Positions 1,972-56,676 of a stretch of DNA of 64,000 bases are shown piece by piece. The notes below the pieces were generated by a model. That model saw nothing but the letters and a program-made list of their open reading frames with translations, searched no databases and was not told the DNA's origin. This DNA is from Negaprion brevirostris. Taxonomy: Eukaryota. The DNA lies in assembly GCA_030324005.1 (NCBI GenBank), contig JARDVH010000121.1:9737539-9801538 (forward strand). The letters run 5' to 3'. The position numbers and the translations under genes are program-made. The first letter of the stretch is position 1. Each line of letters starts with the position of its first letter.

Positions 1972-1998
1972 ATGAAAAGTTAGCAATAATGGCGGACG
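1972..1998 (+). CDS. 27-nt phase-1 micro-exon (D)EKLAIMAD
   Basis: cacttttacAG|atgaaaagttagcaataatggcggacg|GTaatc. Confidence 0.65.
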
Positions 1999-3456
1999 GT
2001 AATCTTGCAATCATTTGATTAAAACCGCATTTTTAGTTTTTTTTTAGGTGTTGCACTCGCTATATTATAAACCTTATTTGTAGCGGGCCGCTGGGGAAGT
2101 GTTCGGCCACTTCGCAGTGCGGATCCAGTGCAATACGGGATAAATGAAATGCCATAAGATGAAAACTGAACACACCCTGCTGCCTCCAGTAAATTCGGAT
2201 CAGTAGTGCACATGGAAATTATTTCTGCTCAAATGGAAAATCTTGCAATGTTTAATGGCTATTGTTTTCTTCTCACTATCGAGGTAACATGCTCGGCATT
2301 ACAAATAGCAATGCCTCAAGTTGGATGATATGAACTGATATTCTTAGCTTGCATTGGTTAATATATTTCTCCCCAGGAAAATACGATTGCAATCTCAAAC
2401 GTGAAATCACTTTGCGCGTTATTGCATCATGAACTATTTGCAGGAAAGCTTGGGAAATCGTTCAAAGTTGCTATCTTCATAACTAAAGTTTTCTGAACAC
2501 GAGCGATGCGATAAAAGTGCAATCCTCGATAGGACATGTGACTGGATGTTTTCAATGTCGCAACATTCCCTTAATTGCTTTCACATTTTCCTTTACCCAC
2601 CCCGACCTGTCGGCATTAATGCTGCTTGACTGAAGATGTGTGTTTCCGACCGTTAGCACATGGGATATTAGGGTTTCTGTCGGAGAACAGCGGTTAATCG
2701 GATTGACCGTCGGTGGGGATCGGTGATGTGGGAGGTTTTGTGTGTTCGAATCCCACACTCGTCATGTTCCTGCGTTAAAGCTTGCACGGGATCATTTTGC
2801 ATTTCTGTCACAGCACGTACAGACTCCGGAACCCCATCATATGCAAGTGCATTCATTAGTTCTGCCGGCGATCTACTTTAGAAGTCTGCATTATCCTCGA
2901 AAACACCCGTCTCTCTCGTATTCAACTCCACACTGCGCAAAGGCAGTAACAGATTCCGAGAGTTTGAAATTGGATAGAGTATATTTTCAGTATCATCCAT
3001 CGATTTGTCTGGCACTTCAGTAAGAACACGTTTCCGCATCAATATATACTATGAAGTCCGCTAGCAGCGCAATATTTCGAAATGTATCTTCTCCTACCGT
3101 TGTTGAAATCGAAAAAAATCCCATTTGTCAGGCTTCCCATACTGCTGCCTTTGAAAAAGCGGCTGCATTTCAAAGAAATAAACTTGAGCTTTGCAATTGA
3201 TCCCACGAATCACAATTCCACAGATTTTATCTCCCATTTCATGGTATCAATTTGATTTGAATATTCAGGCGAATCTTAAACCACATGGGACATTTATCCA
3301 TATGTCTCCGTTTTCCGTTGCGTTGTTTTGGAAAACATTTAGAAAATGTATTGTTGTTTTCGAATGTTTTTGAAGCAGACTATATGCAAAACAAAAACAT
3401 GTATAGTCTCATGAATTGAACTTGACCTGCTCTTTTGCCGCATGTCACAGTTGTAG

Positions 3457-3492
3457 GGCTGGACTCACGTCCAAAAGCTGTGGAAGATCCAG
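3457..3492 (+). CDS. 36-nt phase-1 micro-exon GLDSRPKAVEDP (alternative in-frame acceptor at 3451 would add VV)
   Basis: cacagttgtAG|ggctggactcacgtccaaaagctgtggaagatccag|GTaagg. Confidence 0.65.
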
Positions 3493-3871
3493 GTAAGGAA
3501 AATAATGTTTTATTTTGAAATCCAATGGTAAACATTTCAACTTGGATCAGCGATAGTCACCTGTTTTCAATTCGTCTGATTCTCGTCGCAAATGGTGTCG
3601 ATGCAACTGAAAATAAACAGAGTGTAGAATTTGCCGAGCACGCATTACACTCTTAATGCCAGTACTTTCGGATGGAAGGGAATCCATGGGGAGTTGGCGG
3701 ATGTTCGTGCAGGGAAAGTACATATGGCGAAGTTATGTCTTAGTTCATATGACTATTCTTGCAATATAGACAGTTGATTTATTCCCGCAGCATTGGCGTC
3801 AACCGCAGAATGACATGTGAAGTTTAAAATTGTGCTGTTCAATCTGAATGTCAGTAATTGACGCGTTACAG

Positions 3872-3898
3872 AAAAGAAGCTGAAAGCCAAGCATGACG
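3872..3898 (+). CDS. 27-nt phase-1 micro-exon EKKLKAKHD
   Basis: gcgttacAG|aaaagaagctgaaagccaagcatgacg|GTacct; 379-nt intron after the 36-nt exon; splice sites weak. Confidence 0.6.
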
Positions 3899-5685
3899 GT
3901 ACCTGGTTTAAAAATACATTTCCCAGCATTTCATAATCAAAGCACTTAGAAAGAAAATAGTGACAGAGGAATACTATTCAGTCAATCAATATTTTCTACT
4001 TGTAGGGGATTCAATATTGATTCTCTTAATCTTTGGCAAAATCATTTTGTCATTGAAATATAAACATGACTCAAAGCATTTCACTGATTGCTTGTATTAT
4101 GCTAGAGAAAACCATGATGATGTAACTGGTAACAATGAAGGGAATTGGTTTTATCAGTCGTTATAAATATATGACATTGTTCAGGTAATAGAGTCTGGAC
4201 CATTTCAAATCTACACCTCCGCTCACTACCCACTACTTATTCGTTGCCGCCAATTTCTTAGAGATCAAGACGTTACATTTAGCACAACCTCGCTTTCACA
4301 CAACCCCACCAGCATATCCCAGTACTGAACTTTATCCTTATTATTTGTGAGGATGATTAATATTTAGTTTCTCACAGTTAAGAAATTCGCATGTTAAATT
4401 TCAAATTGCAATAATCGAAGAGGTTCATAGCAATTAATATGTGTCCTTAAATTAATGAATTTGAGGAAAAATGATTGAGCTGACTTCCCCGAAATGTCGT
4501 GCAATTCTGTAATTATATCAAGGAAAATAATACATAAATTGTTGGGTCTAGCTGTAAAATTCAAGACGAGGCATTAGACACGATGTCTTTGATTCATCTG
4601 CAATGTTGCAGGTAAGCCCACACGATTATATGCTGCTAAACATTATTGGACTTTAGATTAGCAAGGCATTCATGCGGCGTTCCTCAATCATTCTTCCTCA
4701 AATACGTAAATCCAATGGCACATATGACGTGCGTTGAAACGCAAGTTGTAATCTAATCCAGGTCTAAACGTGTGTTTAAACTCATTTAAACGTAGATGAA
4801 AACAAGTTGTGTATCTTGGAACTTGTTTGAATTGTTGAAGCATTCTTCCTCATAGACTGATTGTTTTCAGTATAGAGAAGGCGTTCCGAGTCTGTGTTCA
4901 TGTGATTCGGTTGAGTATGGACAATTTGGCAAAGGAGCCTAGGATTAAGATCACGAAACTTTTGATATGAATGGCAGGACAGGCTGAAGAGTTCACATGT
5001 TTGTTGCTGTTCCAAATGTGCATATTCATGCCAAAGGTAGTTTGGAAATTTCGTGCAAAATACATACATTCACTTTGTCTGATTCATGTGTTCTCACTTT
5101 CGTCTTGCAGCACTGGAAAATTTCCAATAATTAGCAAATAATGCCTTTGTTGTTGAAACTCCCGGAACATAATTTCGGAATCACTCATTTTGTTTTTTTT
5201 TTAATGGAGTTATACATGGCTACTCTCCTTTGCCTGGGTTCCACAATTTTTCCAACCCCCATAACGATTGATTACGTTCTTGGGAAAGTACGTTTGACAT
5301 AAAGACCAATCTGAACCAAGCGAATATAATATAAGGGAACACATCAACCTTCTACGTGTCGTGTGTGAGCATCCATTTCCTTAATTAGTGTCCACAGTAC
5401 AGAGTTAAGCTTTTGAAATATTGAATTAATTATGCTATTGATTGTTGCATTCATAACGTGTCTCTCCAGTTCAGTGTTGATCACCGGCCAAAAACAAAAA
5501 GACAACTCACAGAAGGGAAGCAAATTTTGCGGCCCGAATTCAGGAACAATGTTAAACGGTCACCATATGACCATGGTTGCTCCCCGTCCGAGAGTGCGAG
5601 GTTACTGGCGACGAGCAAGTTTGAGAATAAGAGTGCGCCTGAATAATCTGAGCCAGCTGTCACGCTATATGCATGCTGTTGACGT

Positions 5686-5721
5686 AGCTTTGTAAATCAG
5701 GCCAGTCGTCCGAAAACTGAG
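5686..5721 (+). pseudogene. Degenerate 36-nt exon copy ELCKSGQSSEN*
   Basis: Starts AG CTT like the 36-nt class and ends G|GTaaac, but the acceptor is lost (ctgttgacgt) and there is an in-frame TGA. Confidence 0.4.
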
Positions 5722-5809
5722 GTAAACAAATTGGAAGAGCGGCTCGCGCTGCTGCGTCACAGCGAACAGGACCCGCTTTCGATTTGAAGCTTCGTCACTG
5801 TTTCGTCTG

Positions 5810-5965
5810 GGGCGGCACGTTCTGCCGTGTCTGGTTGGGTTTTCCATGACTGTTCCGGTTTCCTCCCACAGTCCGAAGGAACTGCGAGTTAGGTGCGTAG
5901 GTTATGCTAAACAAAAACTCTCTCCGTGAACATGTGCAAGCTTCTAAGCTTGGTTGCTAGGGGAA
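5810..5965 (+). mobile_element. Partial V-SINE/HE1-like SINE
   Basis: gcacgttctgccgtgtctg...tccggtttcctcccacagtccgaag core. Confidence 0.7.
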
Positions 5966-6337
5966 TTTCGCCGAAACTCTATTGCGCTGTTCATATATGC
6001 CTACTTGACAAACTAATAGATAAACTTGAAATAAATTCCGCGGCTATTGATAGGGAACTGCAAGTGTTATTGTTTTGTTCCTGCGACTATTATCGAGATT
6101 CAACAGTTCTCGTGGCTCATAATTCTTTGTTCCTGTTACACCTACGGAGAATAATTTATATTGCATCGTAAAATAATCCCGAAGTTTTACATCGATGCAA
6201 TTTGCCCGACACCAGTGTCGGCAATCTGGGGAAATGGCTAACGGCCCCTTAACTGATGTATTCATCTTGAATACTGGGATTGGATCAACTGTTGAAGCTC
6301 AGACTTCAAAATGAATTGAGACTTTGGCTGTCAAACA

Positions 6338-6340
<3 letters not shown>

Positions 6341-6371
<31 letters not shown>

Positions 6372-6393
6372 GTTGTTGTTATTATTATTATTA
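6341..6393. repeat. (TTA)n/(TTG)n microsatellite
   Basis: Direct reading. Confidence 0.95.
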
Positions 6394-6585
6394 TGAATTG
6401 CTAATTGTTATAGGAATTTGCATTGCAAACACCAGAAGTGTTTCTCAATCCCATAACTTTACTAACTCGCATCCGACATATCACTTGGTGTTTATTTGAA
6501 ATAAAAAAAGAAAATTCACTGAGATATAATATGGATTGCATGTACTTCGCCTGATCGATTATGCTGTCCTCAATCCAATTTACAG

Positions 6586-6612
6586 ACGAGACCAGTAAGA
6601 TAAAAGAGAAAG
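6586..6612 (+). CDS. 27-nt phase-1 micro-exon DETSKIKEK
   Basis: ccaatttacAG|acgagaccagtaagataaaagagaaag|GTaagt (consensus donor). Confidence 0.7.
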
Positions 6613-8165
6613 GTAAGTAAAAGCGTATTAGATTGTTTAAAACGACATGGAAGTCAACTTTTTTTTTCAAAGCCTTTAAAATAGATATTTGTTCTCGTGT
6701 ATGGGTGATGTAAAAAAGAATTGGCTGTTTGCCTTTCTCGCAGTTTTTTTTCTACAAGTGCAGGGGCACGTACATCTGTGGCATATGCCACATATTACAT
6801 TCACTCTGCAATTCAGAGTAATTGTTTGTTCTCTTCTGTTCTGAAAGCGAGCTTAATTGCTGCTGTCTCGATGGTTATTTTAGCTGGTCCTTCTTTGTTC
6901 CAATTCACGAAAACGAGCATCACAGAAATGGATAGCAAATCAGGTGTCACGTTTCATCACCACTGCTGAGTCAGTAAATTCCTTGATATAAACGTGCATC
7001 TGGAGAACTGATTTTTCGAAGTTTCTGAGGAATTAGAACTCTCGCTTTTCCGGCCATGCACTCGTCTATAAACATTAGCGACATATTACCGAATGTGTGG
7101 AAAATCTCGGAAGCGGGAAATGAATCAGCTTCATCTGAAACGCAAGAATCAGCTACAGCCATAACCTTCCGGCAGCAGCATGCAGGGAAGCGATCCTTCC
7201 ATACGATGTCCTCCCTCCGGCCTCATCAAACAGGTTTGCACATTTTTGTGTGAGTCAGAAAAGGTTTTCTCAATCAATCAATCGTTTTCGGCTGAGGCGT
7301 TCCATTTGCACTGTGAACCCTATACCGAAAAACAATTGCTTTCATCGTGCGTCTGTAAAAAAAAAATCCACCGTACATTTGGGCGTGTGTATGGAATGGT
7401 ATATGTGCTCGTCTTGAAGACTGATCAGGCTAAATCCTTTCTTGTTTTATTGATCTCTTTAAGATGGAACATTCGATACCATTTTATTAACGGCATAAAC
7501 ACTTCCAGGAACAGTTTCAATCATTAATTGCCTCACTTGGTTTTCACAAAAATAACTTGTTCCTGTTGAGAAAACATGCGTTCCAATATTTTAAGTGAAA
7601 TGGAAATTAACATAATAGTGTCCTGTAAACAACTCGTATACTTCTTGATATTTAAAAGTTTCAGGCATGTCATGCTTCCTTTATTCGTGGTGTTATCACT
7701 TTTCCAGTTACTTAAGCCAGGATTGGGGCAATGAGTTACCACTTAGTTTCCCTTTGCCTGTGAACTTTTCTCATGACCACCAGTGATTTGGTATCAACGC
7801 TGCATTTTGTCCAATTCCAGGGAACGTGGTGAAAGGACGTACGCATTCTTGTCCATTCTCACCTTTTTGACTCATTTCGTTTTAACAAAATGGGACAAGC
7901 GTTGTGTTCAAATAAGTGCGGTCTTATGCGGCTTAAGATTCGGTTCTCGCCGAGCGTTAATTATCAGAATGGCTTTTGGAGAAGTAGCTTCGGGAAAATT
8001 AAAGCTGCTCACATTTCGTTCCCGATTGATGCAAACATTCAGCATTACATTTCGGTGTCTGGCTGGTCACCGACAGTAATTGCCTCTATATGTTCAACGA
8101 ACAACTTCTTTGCGCTCCTATATAAAACACTTTTCCTGCCCTCGCGTCTGGCCTGCACATGAACA

Positions 8166-8308
8166 GTAAGAAGTCTCACAACAAGAGGTTAAAGTCCAAC
8201 GAATTTATTTGATACCGCTATCAAATAAATTGGTTGGACTTTAACCAGGCGTTGTGAGACTTCTTACAGTGCTTACCCCAGTCCAACGCCGGCATCTCCA
8301 CATCATGA
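8166..8308. mobile_element. Short palindromic Penelope terminal remnant
   Basis: About 49-bp inverted arms (8166-8214 and 8219-8267); the right arm matches the Penelope end at 33711-33756 (caaataaa..ttggactttaacc..ttgt.agact.cttac). Confidence 0.75.
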
Positions 8309-8993
8309 CTGCACATTGACACCAGAGGCCCTCGGAATTATAAGTCTGAAAATTCGTATATTTTATTCTGGCGACTGTTAACGTTTTCAGCAAATAGTTA
8401 CTGCTACTTTGCTATTTCGGAAACTGCTGAGCTGCTGTAAACTTAATTGGCCGGGAGCTCTCTCACAAAAAAAAGTTTCATTCCCACTGAATATTTTGAC
8501 CCTAGAACGTTCTACAGAGACTTGTCTCACTCGGGGCCCGCCAGGATATGTGGCATGAATTGCTCTGGGCTTTCGAAGGTTGGTATGGAAACAAATAAAC
8601 ATGGAATCCAGAAATGTATTTCCAATTTTGCTGCTGTAGCTTTCGCTAATATTCCTCAAACCAGGAGCTCCCACAATCGTTTGCAATGTTTACACTTGCT
8701 TCTGCCTAGCTTTTTTTGTACTACATTTCCGCCCGCCGCTTGACTTTGAGTGGAAGATTTCCTTCAATTAATCCCACGGTGTCCTCGATGCATATTTTGC
8801 CACGTTTTAAATTCATTTTTTTCTTTGTTTGAGCCATATTTTATGAAATGTCTCAGAGTAACTTATGGACCACGTAAATGTTTTTCATCCGATGGATTTT
8901 GAGAGTGGAATTGACAAGATTTGTTTTTTTATTCATCTTTGGCGCTTTTAATTTAAATGCAGCCTCGAAAGTCTATATAATCCTCTTTGAAAG

Positions 8994-9026
8994 AAACTGT
9001 ATGTAAAGCAGCTTTGAAAGATTGCG
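8994..9026 (+). CDS. 33-nt variant of the 36-nt class, ETVCKAALKDC
   Basis: tcctctttgaaAG|aaactgtatgtaaagcagctttgaaagattgcg|GTaagg; retains C-K-x-x-L-K-D. Confidence 0.65.
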
Positions 9027-10824
9027 GTAAGGAAGTTGGCTCGTCAATTTCAACTCTGAGTGCTTTCTGACAACCATTTCATGTGATAAAGGAACACCGC
9101 AGATGTCGTATAGCGCTTGCCCCCTGTTTCAAACATTGCTCTGCTCTCAATCTAGCTGATTCCGATGCATGCAAATATGAAAGCCGATATTGGATTCGGA
9201 CAACGATAAGACTTGATCAGCATATTCGCCCGTTCGCAAGGAAAATGATGTAATACTGTTTCGAGTGTTTGCTTTGCAGTAGCGGAACTTTCGATGAGGG
9301 GAAAGCAAATTCCCCTGCCGCATGAGTGAAATGCTCTTTGGATTACCACTGCTTCATGGGATGCAATTGAAGGTGCAGCAAGTTGAAGTTTGTCTGTTGT
9401 CTGAGATTCAGCAAAAATGATTTACACACGAATACAGTTTGATTTGGTTAATTTGTTGTTGTCACTTATTTTAGTACGCAGTGAAAAGCATTGTTTCCTG
9501 TGCGCCATAGGTGCACGAGCATAAGGTGTGTATTGTTACTTATTTTAGTACGCAGCGAAAAGTATTTTTCCTTTGCGCCATACAGAAAAAAAAAAAGGTC
9601 ATTGAAGGAACCTTTGGCCATTTTGACAGTTAGGCACCAACGTTCGTTAACATGTCAAGGTTTCAAGAAGTGAATACCTATCACTCGAAAATTGAAAGTG
9701 TATTTCAAAGTGCACTGAAAGTTCGGATTCGCTTCTGAGGAGAGCGGTTAACTTCCCGGCTGTTAAAGAAGGACTGTATTTACTTAAATGTATGAAACTT
9801 TAATAGTATCAAGTCAAATGTATAAAGGCTCTACAGCATAAGGTGTGGAAATTTAGATATTGACATTGCTTAGGCCTTTCGAGGGAACACATTTTCATGA
9901 AAATTTGTGTTTATGTATTACAATATCACAGTGTGTTTTAAATGAAACCATTCTCATCACACACGTAATCAAACATATTATTTAAAATACTCAAACATGG
10001 CTTTGGCATGCCCGGGATACACGGCAATTTCCAAGTCTGCAAATTACCTTCCTACCGTCCACCCCTTTCCCGTTCCCTCGCCTTACAATCTTCCGCGAAT
10101 TTTGCATAGAAATGGGGAAGTCGAGTGGATGACACCAGAATTTGCCCCTTTGTGACAGTCAAGTCGACATTTCGAGGCAAAACTGTCTCGGTCGGTTATA
10201 CCGAACTTCAAATCTTAAGAGTAGTTCAATTTCAAGTCATCGTTCATTAAATCTTGGCTCCTGCTGATCGCAGGACCTCTTTGCTGGCAGAGGCTGCGAA
10301 GGTTTTAGTCTTGTGCTGTTGGTACTCGTTTGCGTGGAGCAGTCCCTGTACATAGCAAAGGTATAAAAATCAAAATAATCTGCATGCCCATGCGCAAGTA
10401 AGGTATCAACGGGAACAGGACAGGAACAGTGGGGAGTGAATTGGCCAAAGCCCAACAGTTTCTCCAAACCTTGTGGGAAGGGGAATCGTCTCAGAAGGAT
10501 GTTCCAGGGAGAATCTAATGCAGAGATCAGCAATAGCCCCACTAAATCAAGATGAAAATCAGGAGAAGGGAAAGAGTTGACCATAGTGTAATAAAGTTCA
10601 CTGGGGAACAGAATCGATGCAAAGTGTTTCCGACAGCAATTCTGGAGAACTGACAGGAAAACAAAAACAAGCCTGGAAACTATGTCAAAAGACATACAGA
10701 GAAAGCATACTTTTGCCTGTTGTTGTTCTCTGGCTGGACCTGAACGCGAGCTGATAGTGTGCTTCACCGTTGAAGCTTGACTGTTGTCTGAGATTCAGCA
10801 CAAATGACTTACACACGAATACAG

Positions 10825-11165
10825 TTTGGTTTGGTTAATTTGTTGCTGTCACTTATTTTAGTATGCAGTGAAAAGTATTGTTTCTTGTGTACCATAGAGA
10901 AAAAAAAAACTTCATACAGAAGGAGAAAAAAGTGAAGAAAGTAGTATTACAATCATAGCTAGAGTGCTGAACAAGATCGACTTAATGCAAGGTAGGTTCG
11001 TTCAAATATCTGATGGCAACAGGCAAAAAGCTGCTCTCAAGTCGGTTGGTTCATGACATCGGACGGAAGAAAGTGGAAGAGAGGATGTTCGGAGTGTTTG
11101 GAGTCCTTAGTTATGCTGGCAACTTTGCCTAGGCAGCGGGAGATGTAGACAGAGTAAGTGGATAC
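10825..11165 (-). mobile_element. 3' end of a Rex1/Babar-like LINE
   Basis: 11090-11165 is similar to 13190-13265, which is contiguous with the Rex1-type RT fragment. Confidence 0.6.
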
Positions 11166-12659
11166 TGAAAGCTTTGACGCAGATCTTGTTAGGAGAGATC
11201 CGCATTGCAGAAACTGTTGATGGAAATTCCAGAATTTTGACTTGGAGATTGGACACTCGTGTGAGAAGCACTGGGATTCGGTGAAATCGGGTAACCCACT
11301 GCATGACAAGTGTGTTGTTGGGAAACCTGACGAAACTGCTTTCATGAGAATTGCTATTTCAATACTGTCATCATGCCTTTGAACTCAGCTCACTAGCTAC
11401 TTCACATGTACTGAGGTTTACCCTGAGAATTAAGTTACACATTGGAAGGAGTAACTTATTTTATTTTGCCATGATCTATTGTATGGATAAATAATGATGC
11501 CAACCAGAAATAATGAATATTTATTAAAATAGTTTGAGCTTCTATTGAGAGCTTCCAAGTCGATGTTTACTCTTCCAGACGGGAGCTCTTTGAATGGTCA
11601 TCCAGAGAAATTTGTACAATTATCTGCAAAAGTTGAAATAGAAAACAAAAACTGTAACAAGTATGAAATCACTATAACAATATCTCTTCTGTAACATTTT
11701 CACTGATGCAGGGGTTAGTAATACACAGACCAAAAGATATTTGTGAAGTTAGCCTCGACCCTTATTGTTAATTTTGATTTTGGCATTGCTGTGTAAAATG
11801 TGCTTCACCGGGATATGACTCCAATGACAAACTCGGAGAATATTATCAAACAAAGTTTATTTCTGAAGACAGTTGAAGTAAAATTAAAAAGAAAATCACC
11901 CTGACCAATTACAAGACTTAAATAGGACATAACATTAACGCTGATAGCTAACTGTCTCTGTTGTTCCGAGTTAAATTTCATGAAACAGACATATACCCTT
12001 GTTCAAAGTTGGTACAAATTAAGTATGCTCAAATGTGCGGGATTTTCTGCTACGTAATTCCTGCCGTAAATTGGCCATTGGGAGATCGGATTGCATTTCT
12101 GAGGCTCCTTAATCATGGAGTGTACTGAAAGTCTCTTGAGAGAAAAACAAGAAACAGAGACACTGCGTCCTTCCAGCAGCTTTTGTTAGCAACTGAGCAT
12201 CGAAATTAAAACTTGCAAATCTCTAAATAATAGCTGACCATAGAGAGTTCACAGAACCTGCCAATCCAGTTGCAATTACATTTTGAATGGTGCTATTGCA
12301 AACATAGAACGGAACTCTTCATTAGTAAGGGTTAAAATCAACATGGTATCAGTCGTAAGTCTAGGCAAAAATACAGGACATCGGCGAAGACAACATGATG
12401 CCAACAATATATCCTGCAAACAGATAGGGATAAATCAAATTTCTTCAGGGAATATTTGTCGACATCTCCCAATTTAAAAAAAAACATCCATATACAAAGG
12501 CGTTTAATTTTTCAATAACATTTAGTTTCTTCTAACTTTGGTAATAAGCATAAAAGGGCGAATTTTCGATCGCTGATCTCTTATCACACACTGTGGCGCT
12601 TTTAAATTCTGTCAGGTTAAATCGTCAGCACTATTCAATGTTTCACTAACATTTTACAG

Positions 12660-12686
12660 ATAGTGTGATAATGTAGTCCCAGAATG
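12660..12686 (+). pseudogene. Degenerate 27-nt exon copy DSVIM*SQN
   Basis: Good branch point and acceptor (cactaac attttacAG); 27 nt ending CAG AAT G; donor reads ctgact; in-frame TAG. Confidence 0.45.
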
Positions 12687-13189
12687 CTGACTCAACAATT
12701 TCCCTTTGATCAATTTAAGTGGTCCTCTTCCCTCATGACTAAAAATCAATTCAAATGCCCTGAATTTCGTTCATTCATTAGGTGTATACCTAAATATGAA
12801 AACCTGCAAATGGAACCCCATTATCTCAATCCTCTCGGTAAACTTGGAAATACACCCTCAGGCGTGCCCTTATATGTTGACGTCAATGCCACATTATTCT
12901 CTGCGATTTCAGATTGTACACAATTAATTTAAATTATTTTCCTAATCAGTCCATTTCCTCCCCGAATAAGTTCGATGTACAACTTGATCTTGATGAGTTT
13001 GCACATCTTTGGCTAGCCCATATCCAGTTAAAAAATGTACAATTCACTTTGCAATAATATTGAGTAATTAAATGGGCGTTGGAAATCTAGTCGTGGCATC
13101 AATTGTGATGAATGCGTTTCACTCTCACTTTTCATTATAGTGAGTGAACAGACAAATAAGAAGTACACTATAAAGATAGCAGACAGTAC

Positions 13190-14095: not shown

Positions 14096-14144
14096 GTGGA
14101 CAGCAGATTTAATTCCCTAAACGCCAACGGTGATTTTTTTTTTT

Positions 14145-33757: not shown

Positions 33758-33759
33758 AA

Positions 33760-45444: not shown

Positions 45445-45686
45445 TACTATGGCAATCCCCAAGTCGCCACACTCTGGCGCATATTCGGGTACACCGAGGG
45501 AGAATTTAGAACAATAAATTCACTTTACCTGCACATCTTTGGACTGTGGGAGGAAACCTGAGGCCCCTGATGCAACACACGCAGAAACAGGGGGAATGTG
45601 CAAACTCCATGAAGACAGTGACCCAAGTTGGGAAACGAACCCAGGGCCCTGGTGCTATGAGGTAGAACTGCTAACCACGCTGCCTA
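45445..45686 (-). mobile_element. V-SINE/HE1-like SINE
   Basis: tttggactgtgggaggaaacc...tgcaaactcca...gaacccagggccctgg...gctaaccac. Confidence 0.8.
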
Positions 45687-47029
45687 CATTTTCGAACAGA
45701 TATTGCGAAGTGTAACGGCAAATCCACTGAGTGAAACTTGATATTTCATATCGGAGGACTGTTTATCGTTCTTTTTTTTATGACAGAAAGTTTCTAATGT
45801 TGTCTTCAGAGTTAACACTAGTGTCTGCCTTAAAAATATTCTGATATTCAAGAGAGAATGGTAATTTTATTCAGTGCAGGAGACACAATGTGAATGAGGG
45901 ACATTTGTTGTGAGGAGTATACTAATGAACTTTCAGATCTGAACATTTCAGAGACTCATGCTGTCCAGCCCTATAATCAAAGTGCTGACGGGGCTGTCGT
46001 TCTACTTAATCTGCATTGTGTTATGGTACACTCACTGGCGTAATTATCATTTAATTCAATGTTATCATCGATTTGCCATCCCGGCATCTGGACCACTGAA
46101 AAGGTATTTGGTCGGTGAGTCTGTGAATACCCATATATCGGAAATGTTTTCCCACATTCTGACATGTTATTGCGTCTTCTGTCAATTATGGTTGCGTATG
46201 GGTTTCAATTTAAGTTAGTGGATGTTTTTCATGTTCGAAATGTGCTCTCGAGCGTCGTTAATGGTCGCCTGTGTGCAGGGAAATGCGCCATGAACTATGT
46301 GGAAAACGGTTGTTGCTTTTTTTTTTGCTTTGGACATTCTGCGTGAATAATTTGAAATTCAGATTTATGCAGATACACATCAACTGTTTTACTGTACATA
46401 TGTATAAAAGGCTGGCAGGAATGAGCCTTTCCCAAATAAGTGAGGCTGTACTATCACCTTCATTGCCCAAGGAAACGAATAGCTCTCAATATAGTTGGGT
46501 GAGGGCACGCTGCAAACACCTTACAAATTCATGCACGGTTGCCTTTGAGGGCCACTGACTAATTCTGAAAATATTCAAATTTTCAACAGTTTAATCTATA
46601 CCATTAGGCTGAATTACCTCATCTGCCACCACGCTGTTGAAAATATTTGCATTCCGGATCTGCTCTATGTCATTGCAAATCTACCACTTAATCCTGACGA
46701 TACTTCGAATGCGTCCCTGCGCACATTTAATGAGTCTCCACAGCTGGAACTTCAGCTTCTATTCACTTACGGTTTCTGCCCCAAGTAAGAACATAAGCCC
46801 TATCTGAACTAACTGTCTTGTCTTCACCATTCTGTTACGAATAGAGAAGCGCATTCAACGGATAAACAGAAGGCAACGCATGTGTCATGTAAATATGCAA
46901 ACTGTCACGCTTAATTCTCTGAGCTTTCTGTGCATGGCTTCTGAGATTCAACTGTAAAGCTAAGGGGGGAAATCATACTGATTATTAATTAGTCACAAAT
47001 AAGGCTTACATTTGCAGTGCAATGTAGCT

Positions 47030-47266
47030 ATCTCGAAATTCCCATAGTCGCCGACGTTAGGCGTTTGTTTGGATCATTACACCTAACTGGCACGTTTTTT
47101 TATCAGAACCTGGGAGGAAACCCGAGCAGCCGGAGGAAACACACACAGACATGGCGAAGACGTACACACTACATACAAACACTGAACGACACCGGAAATC
47201 GAACCCTTGACTCTGGAGCTGTGAGGCAGCAGTGCCAAACACTGTGCTACTGTGCCACCGTAGGTG
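47030..47266 (-). mobile_element. V-SINE/HE1-like SINE
   Basis: tgggaggaaacccgagcagccggaggaaac...atcgaaccc...actgtgctactgtgccacc. Confidence 0.8.
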
Positions 47267-47859
47267 GGTGAGGGCACGCTGCCAACCTTCGCAGAAATCA
47301 GCAAATTCGGCTGGGCGAATTAAGCAATAAGAATCGTTTGTCTGGTTCTATGATATTTTGCATGCTGAAATACATATTAAACCACCCAGACAAGTCATGT
47401 CGCCGTTCGTAGATTTTGAACATATATTTAAAATGATAATACCTAACACGAGGCAGTGATATGAAGATCAGTTTGCCAGCATGCATACAGAACAATTTTG
47501 CGTGCAATAATAGAGAAGTCTCAGGACGGAGAACTCACTGAGTTCAAGTTGTCATTACGAAAAATACGATTTTGAAATGGTTTGCAAAGCAGAGACGGAA
47601 ATAATATACATTTTTTTTTCGAAACAACTCCATATAGTTGAGGTGAATATCGTTCCTTTGAGAGGAAATGTTTGATATCACTCCTTGAAGGCAATGAATA
47701 CGATGCCTTTTGGGAAGTAGGCCATTTCACGGGTTATAATTATTTGTTATCAGACGCCAACTTCTTTACATGACTATCTTCCAGTTTTGTTTTGTTTTCT
47801 TAAATGATAGCCATCGTTGCATTTTTCTTAAGGAGCGTCAAAATAACACAAAAGGAGGG

Positions 47860-48410
47860 AAGACCGTGACCCAGTGGCAGTACGGCTAGACGATTAATCC
47901 AATCTTTTCGTTAATGAGCTACCGGACTCGAATCTCGCCACGGCAGTCATTCGAATTTGAAATTAATTAAACATATCTAGAATTAAGCATCTACTGATGG
48001 CATTCAAACCATTGTTAGTTGTCGAGAAACAAGAAAAAACGCCTAGTTCACTAAGAAACACGGAATATTCTGTTCATTGTTGCAGATTCACCCATCGTTC
48101 CAACGTAACTACGGACACAGTTATCATATGCACAAAAAACTCGGTCAAAACTGTGCTGTTTTCGTTGAATTGTTAGGAATCTGAATTGAATCTTACCTTC
48201 AAACTGAATTTCCGAGGAATATAACCTTTTTTTTCGACAGAGATTCAAGGGAACAAATGGAATGGAATTCTGATGTCCTTACCTGGCCTGGCCGTCATGT
48301 GTCTTCAAAGAAACATTGACTTGGTGACTATCAGCTACCCTCTGAACAAGGGACACCAGAGATGGAAAATAATTGCTGGCTTCCCAGCGACGCCCAAGTG
48401 CCGTAAATGA
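47860..48410 (+). mobile_element. Second SINE family (LINE-tail related), split by an inverted 200-bp insert
   Basis: Similar to 60040-60240 and to the antisense copies at 61025-61385 and 61930-62250; interrupted at gttcacta by 48053-48256. Confidence 0.6.
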
Positions 48411-49080
48411 ATTCAAAATGCATTAATTATTGTATCAGTACTTGAAAAATGTTATGATGTGAATGTGAATTCCCACGTTCAACAAAAATCCTTGGGATAC
48501 GACACTTTCAATCCAGTTTTCTTTTGGTTCGTACCGCATCGCCTTAATTTGATATGCCAATCGTTCTTGTTTTAACTACCATGAAACTTTGGACAATACG
48601 TATATATATATATATATAAAATCGCCGAGAAGTCAAATTGCACTCGGAAGTGCCTGGNNNNNNNNNNNNNNNNNNNNNNNNNNNNNNNNNNNNNNNNNNN
48701 NNNNNNNNNNNNNNNNNNNNNNNNNNNNNNNNNNNNNNNNNNNNNNNNNNNNNNNNNGGCAGGAAATTCTCCTTCGGTAACAAGTCTGAAGTGACGACGA
48801 ACGTTCTGATGCAGACTAAAAGCCAATGTTCGTTCAATACAGCCTAATAATTGACAGCCTTTACAAGTGACTTGTTCCCTTCAATCATCTTTCCAAAAAA
48901 GTATTATATTCCTCTGAAATTCAGGTTGAAGGTAAGATCAATTCAGATTCCTGTCAATTCAACGAATACAGCATGGTTTTGACCCAGCTTTCTGTGCATA
49001 TGATAACTGTGTCCTTAAGGACAGTTATGTTGGAACGATGGGTGAATCTGCAACAATGAACAAAATAATCCGTGTTTCTT
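48053..49080. repeat. Inverted repeat: 48053-48256 versus 48872-49080
   Basis: About 205-bp arms alignable by eye with scattered mismatches. Confidence 0.9.
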
Positions 49081-49549
49081 GTCCGCAACTAAAAATCTCA
49101 GCGTTTTAATGCATTTTAAACACATTATGTATTTACAGTAGTGAGCATTTGACATTAAGAAATCAGGCCCCAAAACACCGTTTAGAAGATAAGTCGTCCG
49201 ATTAAAAAAAAAATGAACTCGAATTACAACAATCGAATGGCACAGGTAAAATAACATAAACCAATGCCACATTTTCGAAATCAGCATGACTGTCTTTCTG
49301 GTGATATGGACGGATAACTATTACACTGAACATACCTCATTGAGGTGATTACACGTCAGTCGTTCTGTTCTCGGCGCACAAATAAAGAGCTTTGTTTTGG
49401 AAAATAGATCAAAGACATGATTTCTAAGTGGCATTTTTCCATGCACTAACGTATTGACATTCTAAAAATCCAAACGGCCTGATTCAGTTGTCCTACGTTT
49501 TTAGCTATCGCAAGGTGTCATTTTTGTTAACAAACATTGATATTGAATT

Positions 49550-49690
49550 TTACAACATCACAGCGCAGTACAGGCCCTTCGGACCTCGATGTTGCGCCGG
49601 CCAGTGGAACCAATCTAATGACCCTCTAACCTAAGCTATTCCAATGGTATCCATGTGCCTATCCACTGACCATTTGAACGCCCTTAAAGT
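49550..49690 (-). mobile_element. CR1 3' tail fragment
   Basis: cagcgcagtacaggcccttcggacctcgatgttgcgcc matches 58990-59120 and the reverse complement of about 23830-23950. Confidence 0.8.
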
Positions 49691-50859
49691 GTTAGATTGT
49701 ATTTTGGAACGAATGAGTTGACATAGTGTGTTGCTCGAATTACGAACGCACGGAATACGTTTGTTTTTGCAAGTAAATATATATGGCAGTGGGAGTTTCC
49801 AATCCAATGAAAATTCAAACGCACAAATCCACTGAATACTGGCATGTCCGACGCCTCATTCATGATTTAAGTATAGGAGATGAAAATCACACGTATGTTT
49901 CTTTAGAGCTTATTTTTTTGGTAAATTTGGTATCGACAGCCATTATTATGCTTCACTTTCACATGTATGCATTGGAATTTTGAACGCGCATTGCTGGCTA
50001 CGTTAACAGTACCTGCTTGTCTACAACAGATAGCGCGAATATTATTCAACATGAACTACGCTATCGCTGTCAAATTTCCCTTAAATCATGGAAAATGTGT
50101 ACTTGTCTCATCAATTAGCCTCGTTGGTGCTGTCATTTAAAATCGCCAATGTAAACACAGCAGTGTCAGATTTGGAAATTTGCAATGATCAAGTGTCTGA
50201 AACGTGCACTGTATATTGTGGTCCATTTTCCCCCGAACATACATTGTTCCTGTAATTTCGAGCATCAAAGCTCGACCCTCTGTGTGTCATTTTATGTTGT
50301 ATTCACTGTGTTTTTAGATCCGTCCGTCGCTGTCTATGTCCAACACGGGTGTCTAAGGATATTTTCACACATCAAATTGATGAATCAATTCATGAAATCG
50401 TTATTCAGATTTCTTTTGAGATTGACAACGGCTTTATGGTTCACTAAAATTCAACCCCTTGCATGCTTAATCCCATAACACATATTCACCTGATAGTAGG
50501 ATTAAAAGCAGGCACCAAAGTATGCCAAATCTGAATTTCCAGAACTGGACATATAACATTCGAAAACGCAAATTATCTGAAAGCTTCCGCAGAACTTAGA
50601 AATATTTAATCAGAATGTTGAATGTTTTCATGCACCTTAACAGGAAAACATATTAACTCAAAAGGGGCAATTAATTGTGAAATCATTACTTTCCAACGGC
50701 AAGGAAATTCGTAGTCTTCTTGTTTCCCTCATTTATCCATTGATCGAAATTCAGCTTTGTATAAATGACTGGATGGGAGCTGGAGATATCGATGCCGCTT
50801 TTGCTGGTGTTGATTTAGATGAGACATTGAAATTTGCGAAGTGAAAACACCCCTCCAGA

Positions 50860-53800
50860 GCTAAACAGAAGAAAAAGGATCCAATAGCGGCAGCTGAGGA
50901 ACTTCACGGCTGTAATCTGGGAGATGTCGGCCCAGGGACATCTGCTAAGAAGTGGGAAGCTGAGGAAGCCCTCCAGTAATCAACAGAAAGAAGAACATCC
51001 CGTTAAGGCAGTTGAGGGACTTTGTTGTTCCATTCTGGGAGAAGTCAGCCTCGCAACGTCTACTGAGAATTGCAAAATAGAAGAAGACCATAACGATAAG
51101 TAGGAGAGAGAGCGTCCGCTAGAGGCAGCTGAGGGAATTCAATGGTTCATTATGGGAGACGTCGGCCCAGCGACATGTATTAAGAAGAGGGAAGCGGAAG
51201 ATCTGCTGTCAAGGAGACATAAGCTTGAAGCAATACGTTAGCGTTTCCCTCCCTCCTTCCTTCTCTGACCAAAAGAAAAAAAGGCCAATATGAGTAGTTG
51301 AAAGTGAAGGTAAGAGTTTTATTGACGTTCCTTAAATAATTAATTACTGCTCGAAATTTCAGTAAATGGGGCGAAGTTCTGCACTTTGTGCGATGTGACA
51401 GAACCCGGTCTCGGACGACGACATCTGTAGGAAGTGCACCATTTTGCAACTGCTTACAGACGGCGTGGATAGGTTACAGCAACAGTTGGATGCAATTAAG
51501 AGCATGAAGGTGGCGGAAAGCATTGTAATAGGAACTTTAGCGACGTTGTCACTCCCAAATTGCAGGTGGGTAGACGGGTAACCCCGGGATGGGGCAGGCA
51601 GACAATGCAGGAATCCTCTGTGGTCGCTCCCCTCCCGAACAAGTACATAACATTGGAAAATGTCTTATTTTTGGCTAAGAACAGTCACTAGAGCAATGGC
51701 ACCAAGGCTGGCTCCCTGGTTTAACAGGGTAAGACAAAGAACATTGGAGCAATTGTTTTTCAGAGACTCTATAGTTGGGGGGGGGGGGAGTTAGGGGGAG
51801 GACTTAAGTTCGTTCGGCAGAGGAGTTGGAACAAAAGCGAAGGTGAGGGAACTGAAGGCGGACTAGAGAGTTGGGCCAATGGTTTTCAGAGAAAGATTCG
51901 GCAGAGCATGCTTGCTTTTCAAAGGGGGTCTAGTGTAATGAAGTTATTTTGTTTCAGTGTGAGAAGTCTAAGAGGTGAGGCAGATGAACCTAAAACTTGG
52001 ATTGGTGCTTGGAAATAAGCTGTTGCTGTTGTGGAGATTTGGTTAAGGGGAGGGCTGGTTTGGCAGCTTAATGTTCGACCATAAAGATATTTCAGATGTG
52101 ATAGGAGGAATGTAAAAGGGTGGGGGGGGGAGGGTGGTGGTGAGTGCACTACTGCTACAGAGAAGATCACAGCTGTATTGTGGGAGGACACCTCGGAGGG
52201 CTCAGAGAGAGGCAATATGAGTAGCAGTCTGAATTACGAAGGGTGCAGTCACAATTTGGGGGTTTGCTGTCGACCGCCCAGCAGCCAGCGTGAGATAGAG
52301 GAACAGACATATGGGCAGAGTATGTCAAGGTGTAAAAGTAACAGGGTTGGTGTGGTGGGAAATTTTAATCTCCGCTATATTGACTGGGATTCTCTTAGTG
52401 CAAGGGGCATGAATGTGGCAAAGTAGAAGCATCCAGGAGGGAGTGCAGAAACTGTATTCAAATAGTCCAAATAAGGAAAGAGTCGAACTGGACCCTGTAA
52501 ACGAGTCTGGCCAGTTGTGCGACGTTTCTTTCAGGGAGCAATTCAAGAAGAATGTACACTATGCAGTGAGCTTTAAGGCAATGTTGGATAAAGTGAAGTC
52601 TCCAAGTGAGAATACTAATTTTGTGGAAGACAAATTATAACAGTATTAAGCAGGACTGAAGAATGTAGATTGGGGGCAGATGTAAGACGGCAAACCAACA
52701 TTCGAAACGTGGGAGAATTTCAAGTGTAAGTTGATAGGAATTCAGGACCGGCACATTTCTGTACTGGTCATGGATGACAATGGCAAGTTACGGCAATCTT
52801 GGATAATGAGAAATATTGTGAGCCTCGTCAAAGACCAGAAAAAAAGAAGCATTGCCAAGGCTAGCATCCTGGGGAAACAGGAATCAAGTGTGAAATATAA
52901 GGAAAGTGGACAAAAGCATAAGCAAGGAGGCTATAAGAGGTCACGAAAAGTCATTGGCCAGAAGGACTAAGGAAAATCTTAATTTAATTGATGCTTTATG
53001 TAAAGAGTAAGATGGCAGCTAGGGAAATGGTTGGACACTCAAGGACAGGCGAGGGAAACTATGCATGGAACCAGAGAAAATAGGCGAGGTACTAAATGAA
53101 TACTTTGTGTTTGTATTCACCAAAGGAATGTGCTGCATGATGAGTCTTTGGAAGGGTGTGTAGGTAGTTCGAGTCATTCTGAGATCAAAAAGGAGGCAGT
53201 GTCGGGGTCTCGACAAACATTATATTAGACAATTGGATGAGCCTGATGGGGTATATCCCAGGATACCAAGAAAGGCAATGGAGGACAATGTTGCGACCTA
53301 GTGAGGAATCTTTGTATCCTCACTGGCTGCAGGGGAGGACCCAGAAAATTGGAGAATCCCCAATTTTGCTCCTTTGTTTAAGAAGTGTATCATGTATAAT
53401 CCAGGATATTACAGGCTGGTGAGGCTTCCATCAGTGATAGGGAAATTATTGGAAGTGATTATTCCAAACAGGATTTTTTTTTCCCACTTAAGCGTATTAG
53501 CTAGAGGCAACATGTTAAAAAAGGGTAGCAAGGATGATCCAGATAATCAAAGGCCAGTGTTATGTCAGCTATAGCGAAACTATTGGAGAGGATTCGTCGA
53601 GAAAGGATTTACTCTCACTTGGAAATAAGTGGATGTACCTAAAAGAGGCATTAGGGTGTTGTGAATGGGAGGTTGTGTCTCACTAACTTGATCGACTTTT
53701 TGGAGGAAGTGATGAACATGAGTGATCTGGAAATGCTGGAGGGTGTTGTCCACATAGACTTCAATAAAGCTTGTGAACACGTCCCTCACGGCAGACTGGT

Positions 53801-54905
53801 TCAGAAGGTGACGTCAGGCGGGATCAGAAGTGAGGTAGTAAGATTGGTATGGAACTGGTTCAGTCATACAAGACAGATAGTACCATTGGGCGTTTGCGTT
53901 TCTGAATGTAGTGCTATGAAAAGTGCTATTCTTCAGAGATCACTTTTCGGACATTTGCTACATGTAAGTGAATTGGAGGGAAATGTACCTGATTTGATTC
54001 GTAAGTTTGAGGTCGACACAAAGGTTAGTGGGTTCACGGATAGTGAAGAGGACCTACAGACCTTACAGCAGGGTATCGATCGGTTGGAGAATTGGTTTAG
54101 AGATGGTGGATGGATTTTAATCCAGACAATTGTGAGGTAATGCATTTTGGACGTTCTGATAAAGATAGGAAATGCACAATGGATGGCAGGATTCTTCTGA
54201 ATTTCATAGGCAGAGGGATCATGGGAACACGATCACAGATAACTGCATGTGGCAATGCAGGTAGTCAAGAAGTTACATGGCAGGATTCCCTTCGTCGGCT
54301 GGGAATTGGGTTTAACCATTGACAAGTCATGTTGAAGCTTTATAGAAACTTATTTCGGCCGCACTTGGAATATTGTGTTCAACTCTGGGCAGCACACTAT
54401 CAGAAAGTTATTGTGACATTGGCAAGAGTACAGAACTTATTTACCAGGACGTCCCTGGTATGGAGGGCATTAGCTATGAGGAAGGGTTGGAGAAACATAG
54501 TTCGTTCTCACTGGAACAACAGAGGTTGAGACATGACATGGCGGAAGTAAACAAGGTTATAAGCAGCATGAACAGAGTGGATAGTTAGAGGCTTCTTCCT
54601 CGGGTGGAAGAGACAATTTATAGGAGGCGTAAATTTAATGTGCGAGGGATAAGGTTTACTAGAGCTGTACGAGGAAAGGTTTTTACGCAAATAGTCGCGG
54701 GTGTCTGGAACTCGCTTCCAGGGGGTGGTAGTGGAAGCAGATACGATTGTGAATTTTAAGGGGGGTCTGCACAAATACTTGAATAGGATGGGAATAGAGG
54801 GATTAGGTCCCCAGAAGGGTAATAGTTTTTGGTTCAGTCGGGCAACATTATTGTTGCAGGGTGAAGGGTCTAAGCGTTATTCCTGAGCTGAAATTTCCTT
54901 TGTCC
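50860..54905 (+). mobile_element. Near full-length, degraded CR1 LINE
   Basis: ORF1 remnant CRKCTILQLLTDGVDRLQQQLDAIK near 51430; endonuclease remnant LGVCCRPPSS..VVGNFNLRYIDW; RT CLTNLIDFLEEV, IDFNKA, MDFNPDNCEVMHFG, LYRNLFRPHLEYCVQLW; CR1 3' UTR. Confidence 0.9.
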
Positions 54906-55647
54906 TTCGTTTTTTTGTTTACTTCATTTTCCAACCCTTCCACCCTCGCACAGCGACACTCTACCCACTTTCCAGCTACAGACTAGATCGTCAATTCCCA
55001 GGAGCTTCTGCCCGCTCCACGTTGAAACATTTCACGTAGAAATTTACGCTATTGGCATTATTACCATTACTAATTCCGTCAATCATTTGAAAAGCGTTAA
55101 GTAAATGTTAATTGTCGAATATTTCACTCGCTGGGAAACCGTGATTTGGCTTATTTGTTCGTTTTGTACTTTCTGGTGAATCTAAATATATCTCTCGCAT
55201 GTTTAATTTTACAAAAGTTGTGTCTCCTCGCATGGTTGACATGAACATGCAATATGAGATTTACAAACCCCTTGCATCTTGAATCACTCGCGCTGTCAAT
55301 ACTGAAAGCTGGGATCTAAAAGTGGAAAAGTTAAACTTTACACAGCGGAGCGCTTCATGTTTGAAAGGTGTGTCTGGTGTTTATATAATGTTCAAACCAT
55401 GAAAACAATGGTTCTTATCCCTGTATTACCTTCGCTGAAAAAGAAGCGGAGTTGACAGAGAACGGAAACTTATTTTGTACTCATGCCTCAGAGAGAGCAT
55501 ATGAGTCAAATTGCTATTATTTTTCAGTCCAAAGATTGGTGCGTAGGTGTGAGCTCATTGCTGGTGTTGAATGACCGCCATCAGCAATTATGTTTTGACC
55601 AATTTAGCTGCCTCCCACACGTTCCCACGCTTGCGCACAGACACAGG

Positions 55648-55672
55648 CACACACACACACACACACACACAC
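55648..55672. repeat. (CA)n microsatellite
   Basis: Direct reading. Confidence 0.9.
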
Positions 55673-55769
55673 AGACGCACAATTTGAATAGAGACATATT
55701 TATTTCGAACATGAGGGATTTCCAAAAAGTGCAACAAAATTAAATTGCTCTCCCAGTAAGTCAGATTAC

Positions 55770-55988
55770 GGGGGTCACGATGGCACAGTGGTTAGCACTG
55801 CTACCTCAAAGCGTCAGAGACCCGCGCACGATTCTCGGCTGAGTTCAGTGTCTGTCAGGTGTTTGCACGTTCTGCCCCTGTTTGCACGCGTTTACTCCGG
55901 CTGTTCCGATTTCCTCCCACAGTCTGACAGACGTGCTGGTTAAGGTCATTGACCCGAACAGGCGCCAAGTGTGTCAACTAGGGGAATT
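55770..55988 (+). mobile_element. V-SINE/HE1-like SINE
   Basis: A-box-like tggcacagtggttagcactgct; core gtttgcacgttct...tttcctcccacagtc. Confidence 0.82.
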
Positions 55989-56649
55989 NNNNNNNNNNNN
56001 NNNNNNNNNNNNNNNNNNNNNNNNNNNNNNNNNNNNNNNNNNNNNNNNNNNNNNNNNNNNNNNNNNNNNNNNNNNNNNNNNNNNNNNNTAACTTGAGAGA
56101 ATCAAAACTTGAATTTTCCTCGATCTTCATTCACCTTGTGAATAACATAAAACAAAATGATTTCAAGAATATTAACGCTTCTGAAATTCTGACCACTCCA
56201 ATAATGAAACTAACGAATTCGACGCCCTCACTTAAACAATTCTGTTGCATTCTGCATCGCTCTAATGGTGCTGAACTGCGTGTTATTTAATTATTTGGCT
56301 AAGAATTTGCAACAATGTCCATTACCGTTTAGGGACTCCATCAGGGTCTGATTCTAAACGTTGACCATGCACTTTGCCCAAGATCACTTACTGTTACTAT
56401 TCGCTGACACAGTTTTAACTTACCAGTAGAATATATGACAATACATGCATGAAATAGATCCATTTAATTCGTTCTGGCAAGTAAAATGTCGAGGGCTAAG
56501 AACAAAATGCAGGAACAATTTGCACCACGTGTTTGACCTATATCCGACGCATGCATGCAGAGACATCATTTTGTATTTGAGGAATTATATATCTGGTGCT
56601 GAGCTTTGTTTTTTTTTTGCACTTAAAATTACCATTTTCCAATTTGCAG

Positions 56650-56676
56650 AAGAAAAACTGAAAGTTACGCAAAACG
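56650..56676 (+). CDS. 27-nt phase-1 micro-exon EEKLKVTQN
   Basis: cattttccaatttgcAG|aagaaaaactgaaagttacgcaaaacg|GTatga. Confidence 0.72.

Follow-up and report, generated by a model that had tools for sequence, protein, structure and literature searches.

A megabase-scale array of 36- and 27-nt micro-exons in the shark Negaprion brevirostris, predicted to encode a coiled-coil rod with a terminal B30.2 domain

The stretch of DNA analyzed here (the window) comprises 64,000 nt of the 2.69-Gb genome of the shark Negaprion brevirostris, namely positions 9737539-9801538 of scaffold C121 (JARDVH010000121.1). Positions outside the window are given as window coordinates extended along this scaffold. 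The whole window lies inside an array of very short plus-strand exons, which begins at about -328 kb, is about 950 kb long (952,057 bases), and closes in an exon encoding a B30.2/SPRY domain 559 kb downstream of the window. Results of our analysis indicate that the window is probably the middle of one giant gene of about 950 kb, the predicted product of which is a coiled-coil rod of about 1,500 residues with a C-terminal B30.2 head for ligand binding. In scans of 1.46 Mb, the plus-strand array started at about -328 kb, and a divergent array on the minus strand extended outward from about -340 kb. Between -330 kb and +623 kb, a generic exon scan gave 93 candidates on the plus strand vs. 6 on the minus strand; over the divergent neighbor, from -700 kb to -330 kb, it gave 0 and 38, respectively. 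The locus is framed by the following features.

1..64000, plus strand: the whole window, contained in the array that runs from about -328 kb to the terminal B30.2/SPRY exon
C121:10360663-10361196 (L106:9125-9658; extended position 623,125), plus strand: terminal B30.2/SPRY exon, SPRY match in the orientation of the array

The exons of the array fall into two main classes, class A of 36 nt and class B of 27 nt. They were searched for with position-weight models that ignored the AG and GT dinucleotides and had been built from 35 A and 35 B copies located outside the window. Above 20 bits, the model of class A found 8 copies on the plus strand of the window and that of class B found 7; the minus strand and 20 dinucleotide shuffles yielded none with either model. 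Class B is noisier at lower cut-offs, with 12 plus-strand vs. 3 minus-strand hits at 12 bits. A first-pass annotation, which had proposed the exon array from the letters of the window alone, had named such a comparison of strands and shuffles as its check, and the 15 strong plus-strand copies bear the array out. All eight peptides quoted there lie on the plus strand, with exon-like sites and intron-like flanks. Both AG and GT are present at 13 of the 23 window positions examined, nine have a dead site, and one is doubtful, as listed below.

1972..1998, plus strand: class B 27-nt micro-exon, AG/GT intact
3457..3492, plus strand: class A 36-nt micro-exon, AG/GT intact; use of a stronger acceptor located 6 nt upstream would extend it to 42 nt
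3872..3898, plus strand: class B 27-nt micro-exon, intact, acceptor weak
6586..6612, plus strand: class B 27-nt micro-exon, intact
8991..9026, plus strand: class A copy, acceptor dead (GA)
16222..16257, plus strand: class A copy, donor dead (GG), quoted as canonical in the first-pass annotation
16630..16656, plus strand: class B copy, acceptor dead (TG), module partner of the copy at 16222
17520..17546, plus strand: class B 27-nt micro-exon, intact
20140..20175, plus strand: class A copy, acceptor dead (AA)
25679: doubtful weak position (AG/GC)
27599..27634, plus strand: class A copy, donor dead (AT), also quoted as canonical; letters identical in contig set X1
28018..28044, plus strand: class B 27-nt micro-exon, AG/GT present, acceptor and donor both weak
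34738..34773, plus strand: class A 36-nt micro-exon, intact
35086..35112, plus strand: class B 27-nt micro-exon, intact, acceptor weak
36228..36263, plus strand: class A 36-nt micro-exon, intact
36660..36686, plus strand: class B 27-nt micro-exon, intact
42439..42474, plus strand: class A copy, donor dead (CT); letters identical in contig set X1
44762..44797, plus strand: class A 36-nt micro-exon, intact
45103..45129, plus strand: class B 27-nt micro-exon, AG/GT present, acceptor weak
50644..50670, plus strand: class B copy, donor dead (TT)
55438..55464, plus strand: class B copy, acceptor and donor dead
56650..56676, plus strand: class B 27-nt micro-exon, intact
62468..62494, plus strand: class B copy, donor dead (TT), beyond the end of the array as first delimited

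The count of 13 canonical exons given in the first-pass annotation agrees with ours, but two of the four 36-nt exons that it quoted, those at 16222 and 27599, have dead donors (GG and AT, respectively), and the death of about 40 percent of the window copies (9 of the 22 clear ones) had been overlooked. The proposed alternation of 36- and 27-nt exons is interrupted inside the window, since the intact set consists of nine class B and four class A exons, although it holds along the gene, as described below. Contigs of the set X1, which behaves as DNA, without splice joints, and may derive from the source sample, extend over the dead donors at 27599 and 42439. No alternative letters occur in these contigs and the two dead donors are, therefore, unlikely to be assembly errors. 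The dead copy at 42439 has a duplicate 32 kb downstream, outside the window, in which the splice sites are intact. Two symmetric phase-1 candidates with good splice scores, at 5872-5892 (21 nt) and 26939-26968 (30 nt), match neither class; they might be fillers of the runs that consist of class B exons only. The window also contains, at 29814-33750, the remains of a Penelope/LINE-like retroelement with an internal inverted duplication and very high copy depth in X1; one open reading frame (ORF) in it has a sub-threshold reverse transcriptase match.

We collected 185 candidates from -328 kb to the B30.2 exon, partly with the use of a composition filter. Intact sites and the lack of a stop characterize 143 of them (68 A, 70 B, and five exons of 21 nt), which would together encode about 1,480 residues, with K, E, and L abundant. 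Both boundaries of every unit are in phase 1, and its length is a multiple of three, so that a copy can be gained or lost without a frame shift. One 36-nt and one 27-nt exon together specify 21 residues, i.e., three heptads. In 51 adjacent A+B pairs, positions 2, 5, 9, 12, and 16 are hydrophobic or cysteine in 82, 73, 78, 63, and 92 percent, respectively, position 19 is mostly polar, and the hydrophobic period along the joined candidates is 3.5. The a/d heptad pattern claimed in the first-pass annotation is recovered at these five core positions. The loss of a single A or B exon shifts the heptad register locally, and the unpaired runs, of which the window has examples, would thus correspond to kinks or hinges.

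Along the gene, intact copies of the two classes alternate at 103 of 137 adjacencies, as compared to a mean of 69 in shuffled orders, and none of 5000 shuffles reached as high a value. When all copies are taken together, the alternation is less regular (124 of 179). Introns of 280-480 nt separate A from the following B in 19 of 62 cases and B from the following A in 1 of 61. Moreover, segments are duplicated inside the gene at 65-72 percent identity, for instance the window region 40-45 kb and the region 72-78 kb. The short A-to-B introns and the segmental duplicates indicate that the duplicated unit is a genomic module. A recent triplication in the gene, at -146,128 to -137,600 (L036-L037), with copies 85-91 percent identical, is the youngest multi-kilobase duplication seen. 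Cysteine at position 5 of A exons is unevenly distributed: it occurs in 1 of 11 exons upstream, in 2 of 5 in the window, in 21 of 37 at 64-420 kb, and in 0 of 15 near the end. In the minus-strand neighbor, it is absent from the first four A exons and present in the next 10 of 10. The same order of cysteine blocks in the neighbor favors the assignment of the array to one gene.

The terminal B30.2 exon has a phase-1 acceptor and a stop codon, and its frame is open in both parts that flank a 10-N gap in its middle. No residue is missing at this gap in comparison with the paralogues. The second part scores 35.3 bits in the SPRY search (cut-off 26.3) and the first part 21.3 bits. The search of the genome for SPRY domains, in which 150 of 186 candidates were scored, gave 143 matches, and among the candidates scored six are located on C121 between 6.23 and 10.95 Mb, i.e., within 4.7 Mb. 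The gene of the window is, thus, one of a cluster of at least six, which had been overlooked in the first-pass annotation. Four of the paralogues score 47-58 bits. A PRY domain is represented by a sub-threshold match in one of six pieces, although the region aligns to TRIM21 from the first strand. The best solved relatives are TRIM21, in the case of the window gene's domain, and BTN3A1 (E 1e-24 for a paralogue). Each of the five other B30.2 exons of C121 is preceded by exons of 36, 27, and 21 nt on its own strand, and two of the paralogous arrays still continue after 167 and 200 kb. An AlphaFold2 model of a paralogous B30.2 exon, based on a 7-row alignment, reached a pLDDT of 47.5 and was left aside. 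The genome has its main cluster of TRIM and butyrophilin genes on C84, away from the C121 cluster. A seventh, more distant B30.2 match, 32 percent identical to a skate protein, lies inside that TRIM/butyrophilin cluster (C84:93461004-93461510, minus strand) and may mark the place of origin of the family.

When 1.84 billion representatives were searched with a profile built from the six B30.2 exons, a small set of single-domain matches ranked above ordinary TRIMs. The named relatives come from catshark, little skate, electric ray, basking shark, and elephant shark, and two more are Logan proteins. As all the named relatives are chondrichthyan, the earlier proposal of an expandable coiled-coil segment of a lineage-specific protein gains support. 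The family models (XP_042192744.1, XP_038668997.1, XP_055510696.1, XP_069775385.1, XP_042191567.1, XP_038672308.1, and XP_078422387.1) are mostly fragments of 175-460 aa, and databases name the relatives TRIM39-, TRIM58-, TRIM69-, or A33-like. The longest relative, XP_042192744.1 of a chimaera (1,697 aa), contains a long coil, and SPRY is its sole domain over the cut-off; a complex prediction with two copies of its residues 380-660 was uninformative (score 0.02). Predicted isoforms of the chimaera, catshark, and electric ray relatives differ by blocks of 9 residues, and also of 6 and 7; in these predictions, the 9-residue blocks are what cassette micro-exons would give. In a quick tree of 67 B30.2 rows, including 15 of the family, 33 of TRIMs, and 10 of Ig-bearing proteins (midpoint root), all 15 family rows form one branch (length 0.8, SH-aLRT 100), apart from the TRIM and Ig-bearing rows.

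The sequences closest to the B30.2 domain of the window's gene are 39-41 percent identical to it over the part tested, and no close orthologue was found among them. One paralogue is 75 percent identical to a catshark protein. A homologue search with the partial B30.2 of the window's gene gave 0 of 50 candidates at E 1e-10, and the only sequences retrieved with the whole chimaera protein were its own entry and an earlier model of that gene. In the ESM Atlas, clusters of long chordate proteins that carry SPRY and have many isoforms (55, 79, and 137 members; scores 0.79-0.92) provide a lead: the coil-plus-B30.2 plan probably occurs outside this family as well. In a bowfin model of 632 aa (P0082), a hydrophobic stretch and a long, repeated coil occur together with a conventional PRY-SPRY that falls outside the family clade; this model is either an independent or a mis-joined coil-plus-B30.2 protein. 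We found no paper on the family in the literature searched, which covered few subscription journals.

The tail of chicken BG proteins is a coiled coil encoded in many small frame-preserving exons, the number of which varies between genes; each gene has 13-36 such exons of 21 or 24 nt, a 21-nt exon holding one heptad, accompanied by an Ig-V domain and a membrane helix, with no B30.2 (PMC4046983, PMC5938342). The shark gene is similar in its heptad tail of small frame-preserving exons and in its membership of a tandem multigene family. However, its unit is a 36+27-nt pair of three heptads, present in more than 140 copies over about 950 kb, its end is a B30.2 domain, and no Ig exon was found. In the case of butyrophilins, IgV and IgC domains, a membrane helix, and a few heptads are followed by B30.2 (PMC8813856). 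The succession of a heptad segment and a terminal B30.2 exon is common to the shark gene and to butyrophilins (BTN/BTNL), and the B30.2 is similar to that of BTN3A1. The comparison with butyrophilin and BG tails that the first-pass annotation had drawn is, thus, strengthened, because the array closes in a B30.2 exon. In contrast to butyrophilins, the shark B30.2 domains form a separate, long-branched clade, which excludes 10 of 10 Ig-bearing rows, and their PRY half is barely detectable; no Ig-V or IgC was found in an assembly with gaps and with V-set candidates scored in part. Butyrophilins have been reported in cartilaginous fishes by a source whose available parts do not mention the shark micro-exon family (PMC12841164).

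A coiled coil with a terminal B30.2 is also found in TRIM PRY-SPRY proteins (TRIM21, TRIM39, A33-like), but the coil of the shark gene is many times longer and built of micro-exons, and no RING or B-box was found in an assembly that contains gaps. Guinea pig enterophilin-1 has a zipper-plus-B30.2 plan. Together with chicken zipper protein it provides an analogy only, as a soluble, long leucine-zipper protein of the butyrophilin sphere, although both are far shorter than the shark rod. Enterophilin-1 interacts with SNX1 (PMC13749957), and chicken zipper protein is a soluble BG tail that acts on actin-myosin (PMC4046983). On the whole, the shark gene resembles the BG/butyrophilin tail, while the tested defining features of butyrophilins (Ig domains and B30.2 grouping) and of TRIMs (RING/B-box) were not found in it.

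The gene's 5' end was searched for domains that could precede the rod. A pattern scan of 1.06 Mb (the stretch without the B30.2 exon) for Ig, lectin, RING, TNF, and SRCR motifs gave noise only, and no Ig, RING, or B-box was present in 150 of the 191 ORFs of at least 80 aa between -380 kb and -225 kb. Over 6-11 Mb of C121, there was no match to butyrophilin IgC (55 of 55 candidates scored), V-set (150 of 927 scored), or B-box (150 of 289 scored), and none of the seven family proteins scanned contains an Ig, RING, or B-box domain. A scan for ATG plus a hydrophobic stretch, an exon scan, and a comparison of three 5' intervals revealed no shared first exon. In the sequence upstream of two paralogues the arrays continued and no first exon was found. 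One candidate emerged.

Extended position -320,273 (L098:9727-9871), plus strand: candidate first coding exon of 145 nt, with strong sites, an ATG, and a hydrophobic stretch

The two strands of 1.46 Mb contain five site pairs as strong as that of this candidate, a paralogue of it is lacking, and T-rich sequence readily translates as hydrophobic; for these reasons we rate it low, and it is doubtful as the true first coding exon. Two database models have hydrophobic starts that may stem from introns. Annotation of the flanks for Ig, transmembrane, B30.2, and lectin exons, recommended in the first-pass annotation, thus yielded the B30.2 exon and, the hydrophobic candidate aside, none of the other three, and the possible receptor status suggested there gained no support in an array span of which 14 percent (136,535 of 952,057 bases) is N.

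Several observations concern the borders and introns of the array. A lone class A-like exon at -328,398 (L098, plus strand) lies 47 kb before the next one and at most 15 kb from the first minus-strand exons; of the two genes arranged head to head, it may be part of either one. At about 112,316 (L015), a strong class A exon occurs on the opposite (minus) strand, in a 1.2-kb contig between N gaps with a palindrome; this contig is probably mis-oriented. The divergent neighbor contains, at -388,350 to -377,294 (L092-L093, minus strand), a triplicated class of 45-nt, Gly/Pro-rich exons beside a 48-nt exon, and these are possible hinges in the rod of the neighbor gene. Broken retrovirus-like pol/env fragments are present in introns at about -271,200 to -265,300 (L023-L024) and about 414,800 (L066), one of them with a weak envelope-family match (E 0.027).

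The same data can be read in other ways. The gene could be a true butyrophilin/BG-type receptor, whose signal peptide, Ig-V, and membrane helix are in a gap or were missed and whose array forms a very large cytoplasmic tail. A butyrophilin tail has the same plan, heptad micro-exons and then B30.2 (PMC8813856, PMC4046983), the array contains five 21-nt exons, about 16 kb of N lie between -328 kb and -268 kb, and there is one hydrophobic candidate first exon. However, the lack of Ig families in the 5' ORFs scored, of IgC and V-set matches among the candidates scored at 6-11 Mb of C121, and of Ig domains in the seven family proteins, as well as the separation of the B30.2 clade from the 10 Ig-bearing rows, make this unlikely. 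A TRIM protein with an expanded coil, the RING and B-box exon of which is hidden or was missed, would explain the TRIM- and A33-like names of the relatives and the best solved match of the domain to TRIM21; it is very unlikely in view of the absence of B-box matches among the scored candidates of that region, of RING and B-box in the 5' ORFs and in the seven proteins, and of the separation of the clade from the 33 TRIM rows. The stalk repeat of CD23 is exon-encoded and of 21 residues, like the shark unit, but the stalk of a CD23-type C-type lectin receptor, a comparison made in the first-pass annotation, can be set aside almost entirely: the array ends at B30.2 in the window's gene and in five paralogues, and the pattern scan gave no convincing lectin motif. 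Finally, a gene built as described might have a structural job, e.g., as a germ-cell or filament protein with B30.2 as a docking head and no immune role. The very long charged rod, the cysteine at one core position in its central block (21 of 37 A exons), the location away from the C84 cluster, and the action of chicken zipper protein on actin-myosin (PMC4046983) agree with such a role, which shares the gene structure with our preferred explanation and differs in function only. We regard it as a minority possibility; against it speaks that the B30.2 heads of the paralogues share no more than 33-39 percent identity with the first alignment row, as in diversifying recognition families.

The whole gene might also be a recently dead pseudogene, the broken splice sites reflecting uniform decay. 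Dead or non-GT sites in 9 of 22 clear window copies and in 29 of 108 copies at 0-420 kb, the similar pN/pS of dead and intact copies, and the lack of a close full-length protein among those found are in line with it. On the other hand, uniform decay strong enough to destroy one site in four (about 8 percent per base) should leave stops in about 9 of the 79 intact copies at 0-420 kb, whereas none was observed, and 0 of 500 simulations gave none; the numbers of such copies expected at 5, 8, and 15 percent neutral change are 5.6, 8.8, and 14.6. Copies without AG/GT in the same interval have stops in 2 of 29 cases. Moreover, both parts of the B30.2 exon are open, and intact copies alternate more regularly than all copies do. 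Estimates of dN/dS were 0.56 for class A (5 pairs) and 0.18 for class B (6 pairs). The avoidance of stops suggests purifying selection on intact copies; uniform decay of the whole gene is disfavored, copy-by-copy loss appears to fit best, and a pseudogene is quite improbable.

Some points weigh against one giant, functional gene. The stop test is slightly biased, as the models were trained on stop-free copies. There is no clear difference in pN/pS between dead and intact copies (0.69 vs. 0.63 in class A, 0.47 vs. 0.37 in class B), and the conservation of B exons (0.64) does not exceed that of their flanks (0.65); these figures may reflect loose constraint and recent deaths, or the continued use of some dead-looking copies. 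With 14 percent of N, another terminal or first exon could hide in the span, which could then comprise more than one gene. Every exon junction of the array is predicted from genomic sequence, and X1 does not bridge the 10-N gap that cuts the B30.2 exon. Exon-by-exon collinearity with the neighbor gene is not significant (rho 0.24, p 0.13), and the 12+9-residue module is only weakly recovered in the chimaera protein, where B follows 4 of 22 A hits. The relatives are represented by automatic gene models, most of which are truncated.

As its self-similarity shows, the array grew through tandem duplication of genomic segments that contain the A-intron-B module, and single copies die by a point change in AG or GT, seen in the sequence, with skipping as the presumed result. 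If the window is the middle of one such gene, intact copies would be spliced into one mRNA and dead copies skipped, so that rod length would change via the birth and death of single exons. The rise of a coiled coil is 0.15 nm per residue. The rod could, thus, be about 200 nm long, like a butyrophilin/BG tail stretched, and might oligomerize and hold two or more B30.2 heads together. By analogy with known systems, the most likely role would be that of an intracellular recognition or scaffolding protein.

A tail of heptad exons is already known from chicken BG and butyrophilins, and the shark array is a new form of such a tail; new here are the six-gene cluster, the span of about 950 kb, and the count of dead copies. 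The multi-megabase gene cluster reaches annotation only as short TRIM-like fragments, because exons of 27-36 nt in kilobase introns get missed. With its duplicated modules and intact copies beside those dead by one base at a splice site, the gene is a natural record of exon birth and death. It also makes the BG question, i.e., the role of a long, length-variable heptad tail, testable in a second lineage, with the tail and a B30.2 head in one chain. Tentatively, we propose that the family is older than the chimaera-shark split and consists of megabase genes with 100-200 micro-exons each, which would encode Ig-less and RING-less B30.2 sensors on rods of about 200 nm, their length tuned by exon duplication and death and by cassette splicing. 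If this is true, they would constitute a third B30.2 system beside TRIMs and butyrophilins and would be among the most exon-rich gene families of vertebrates.

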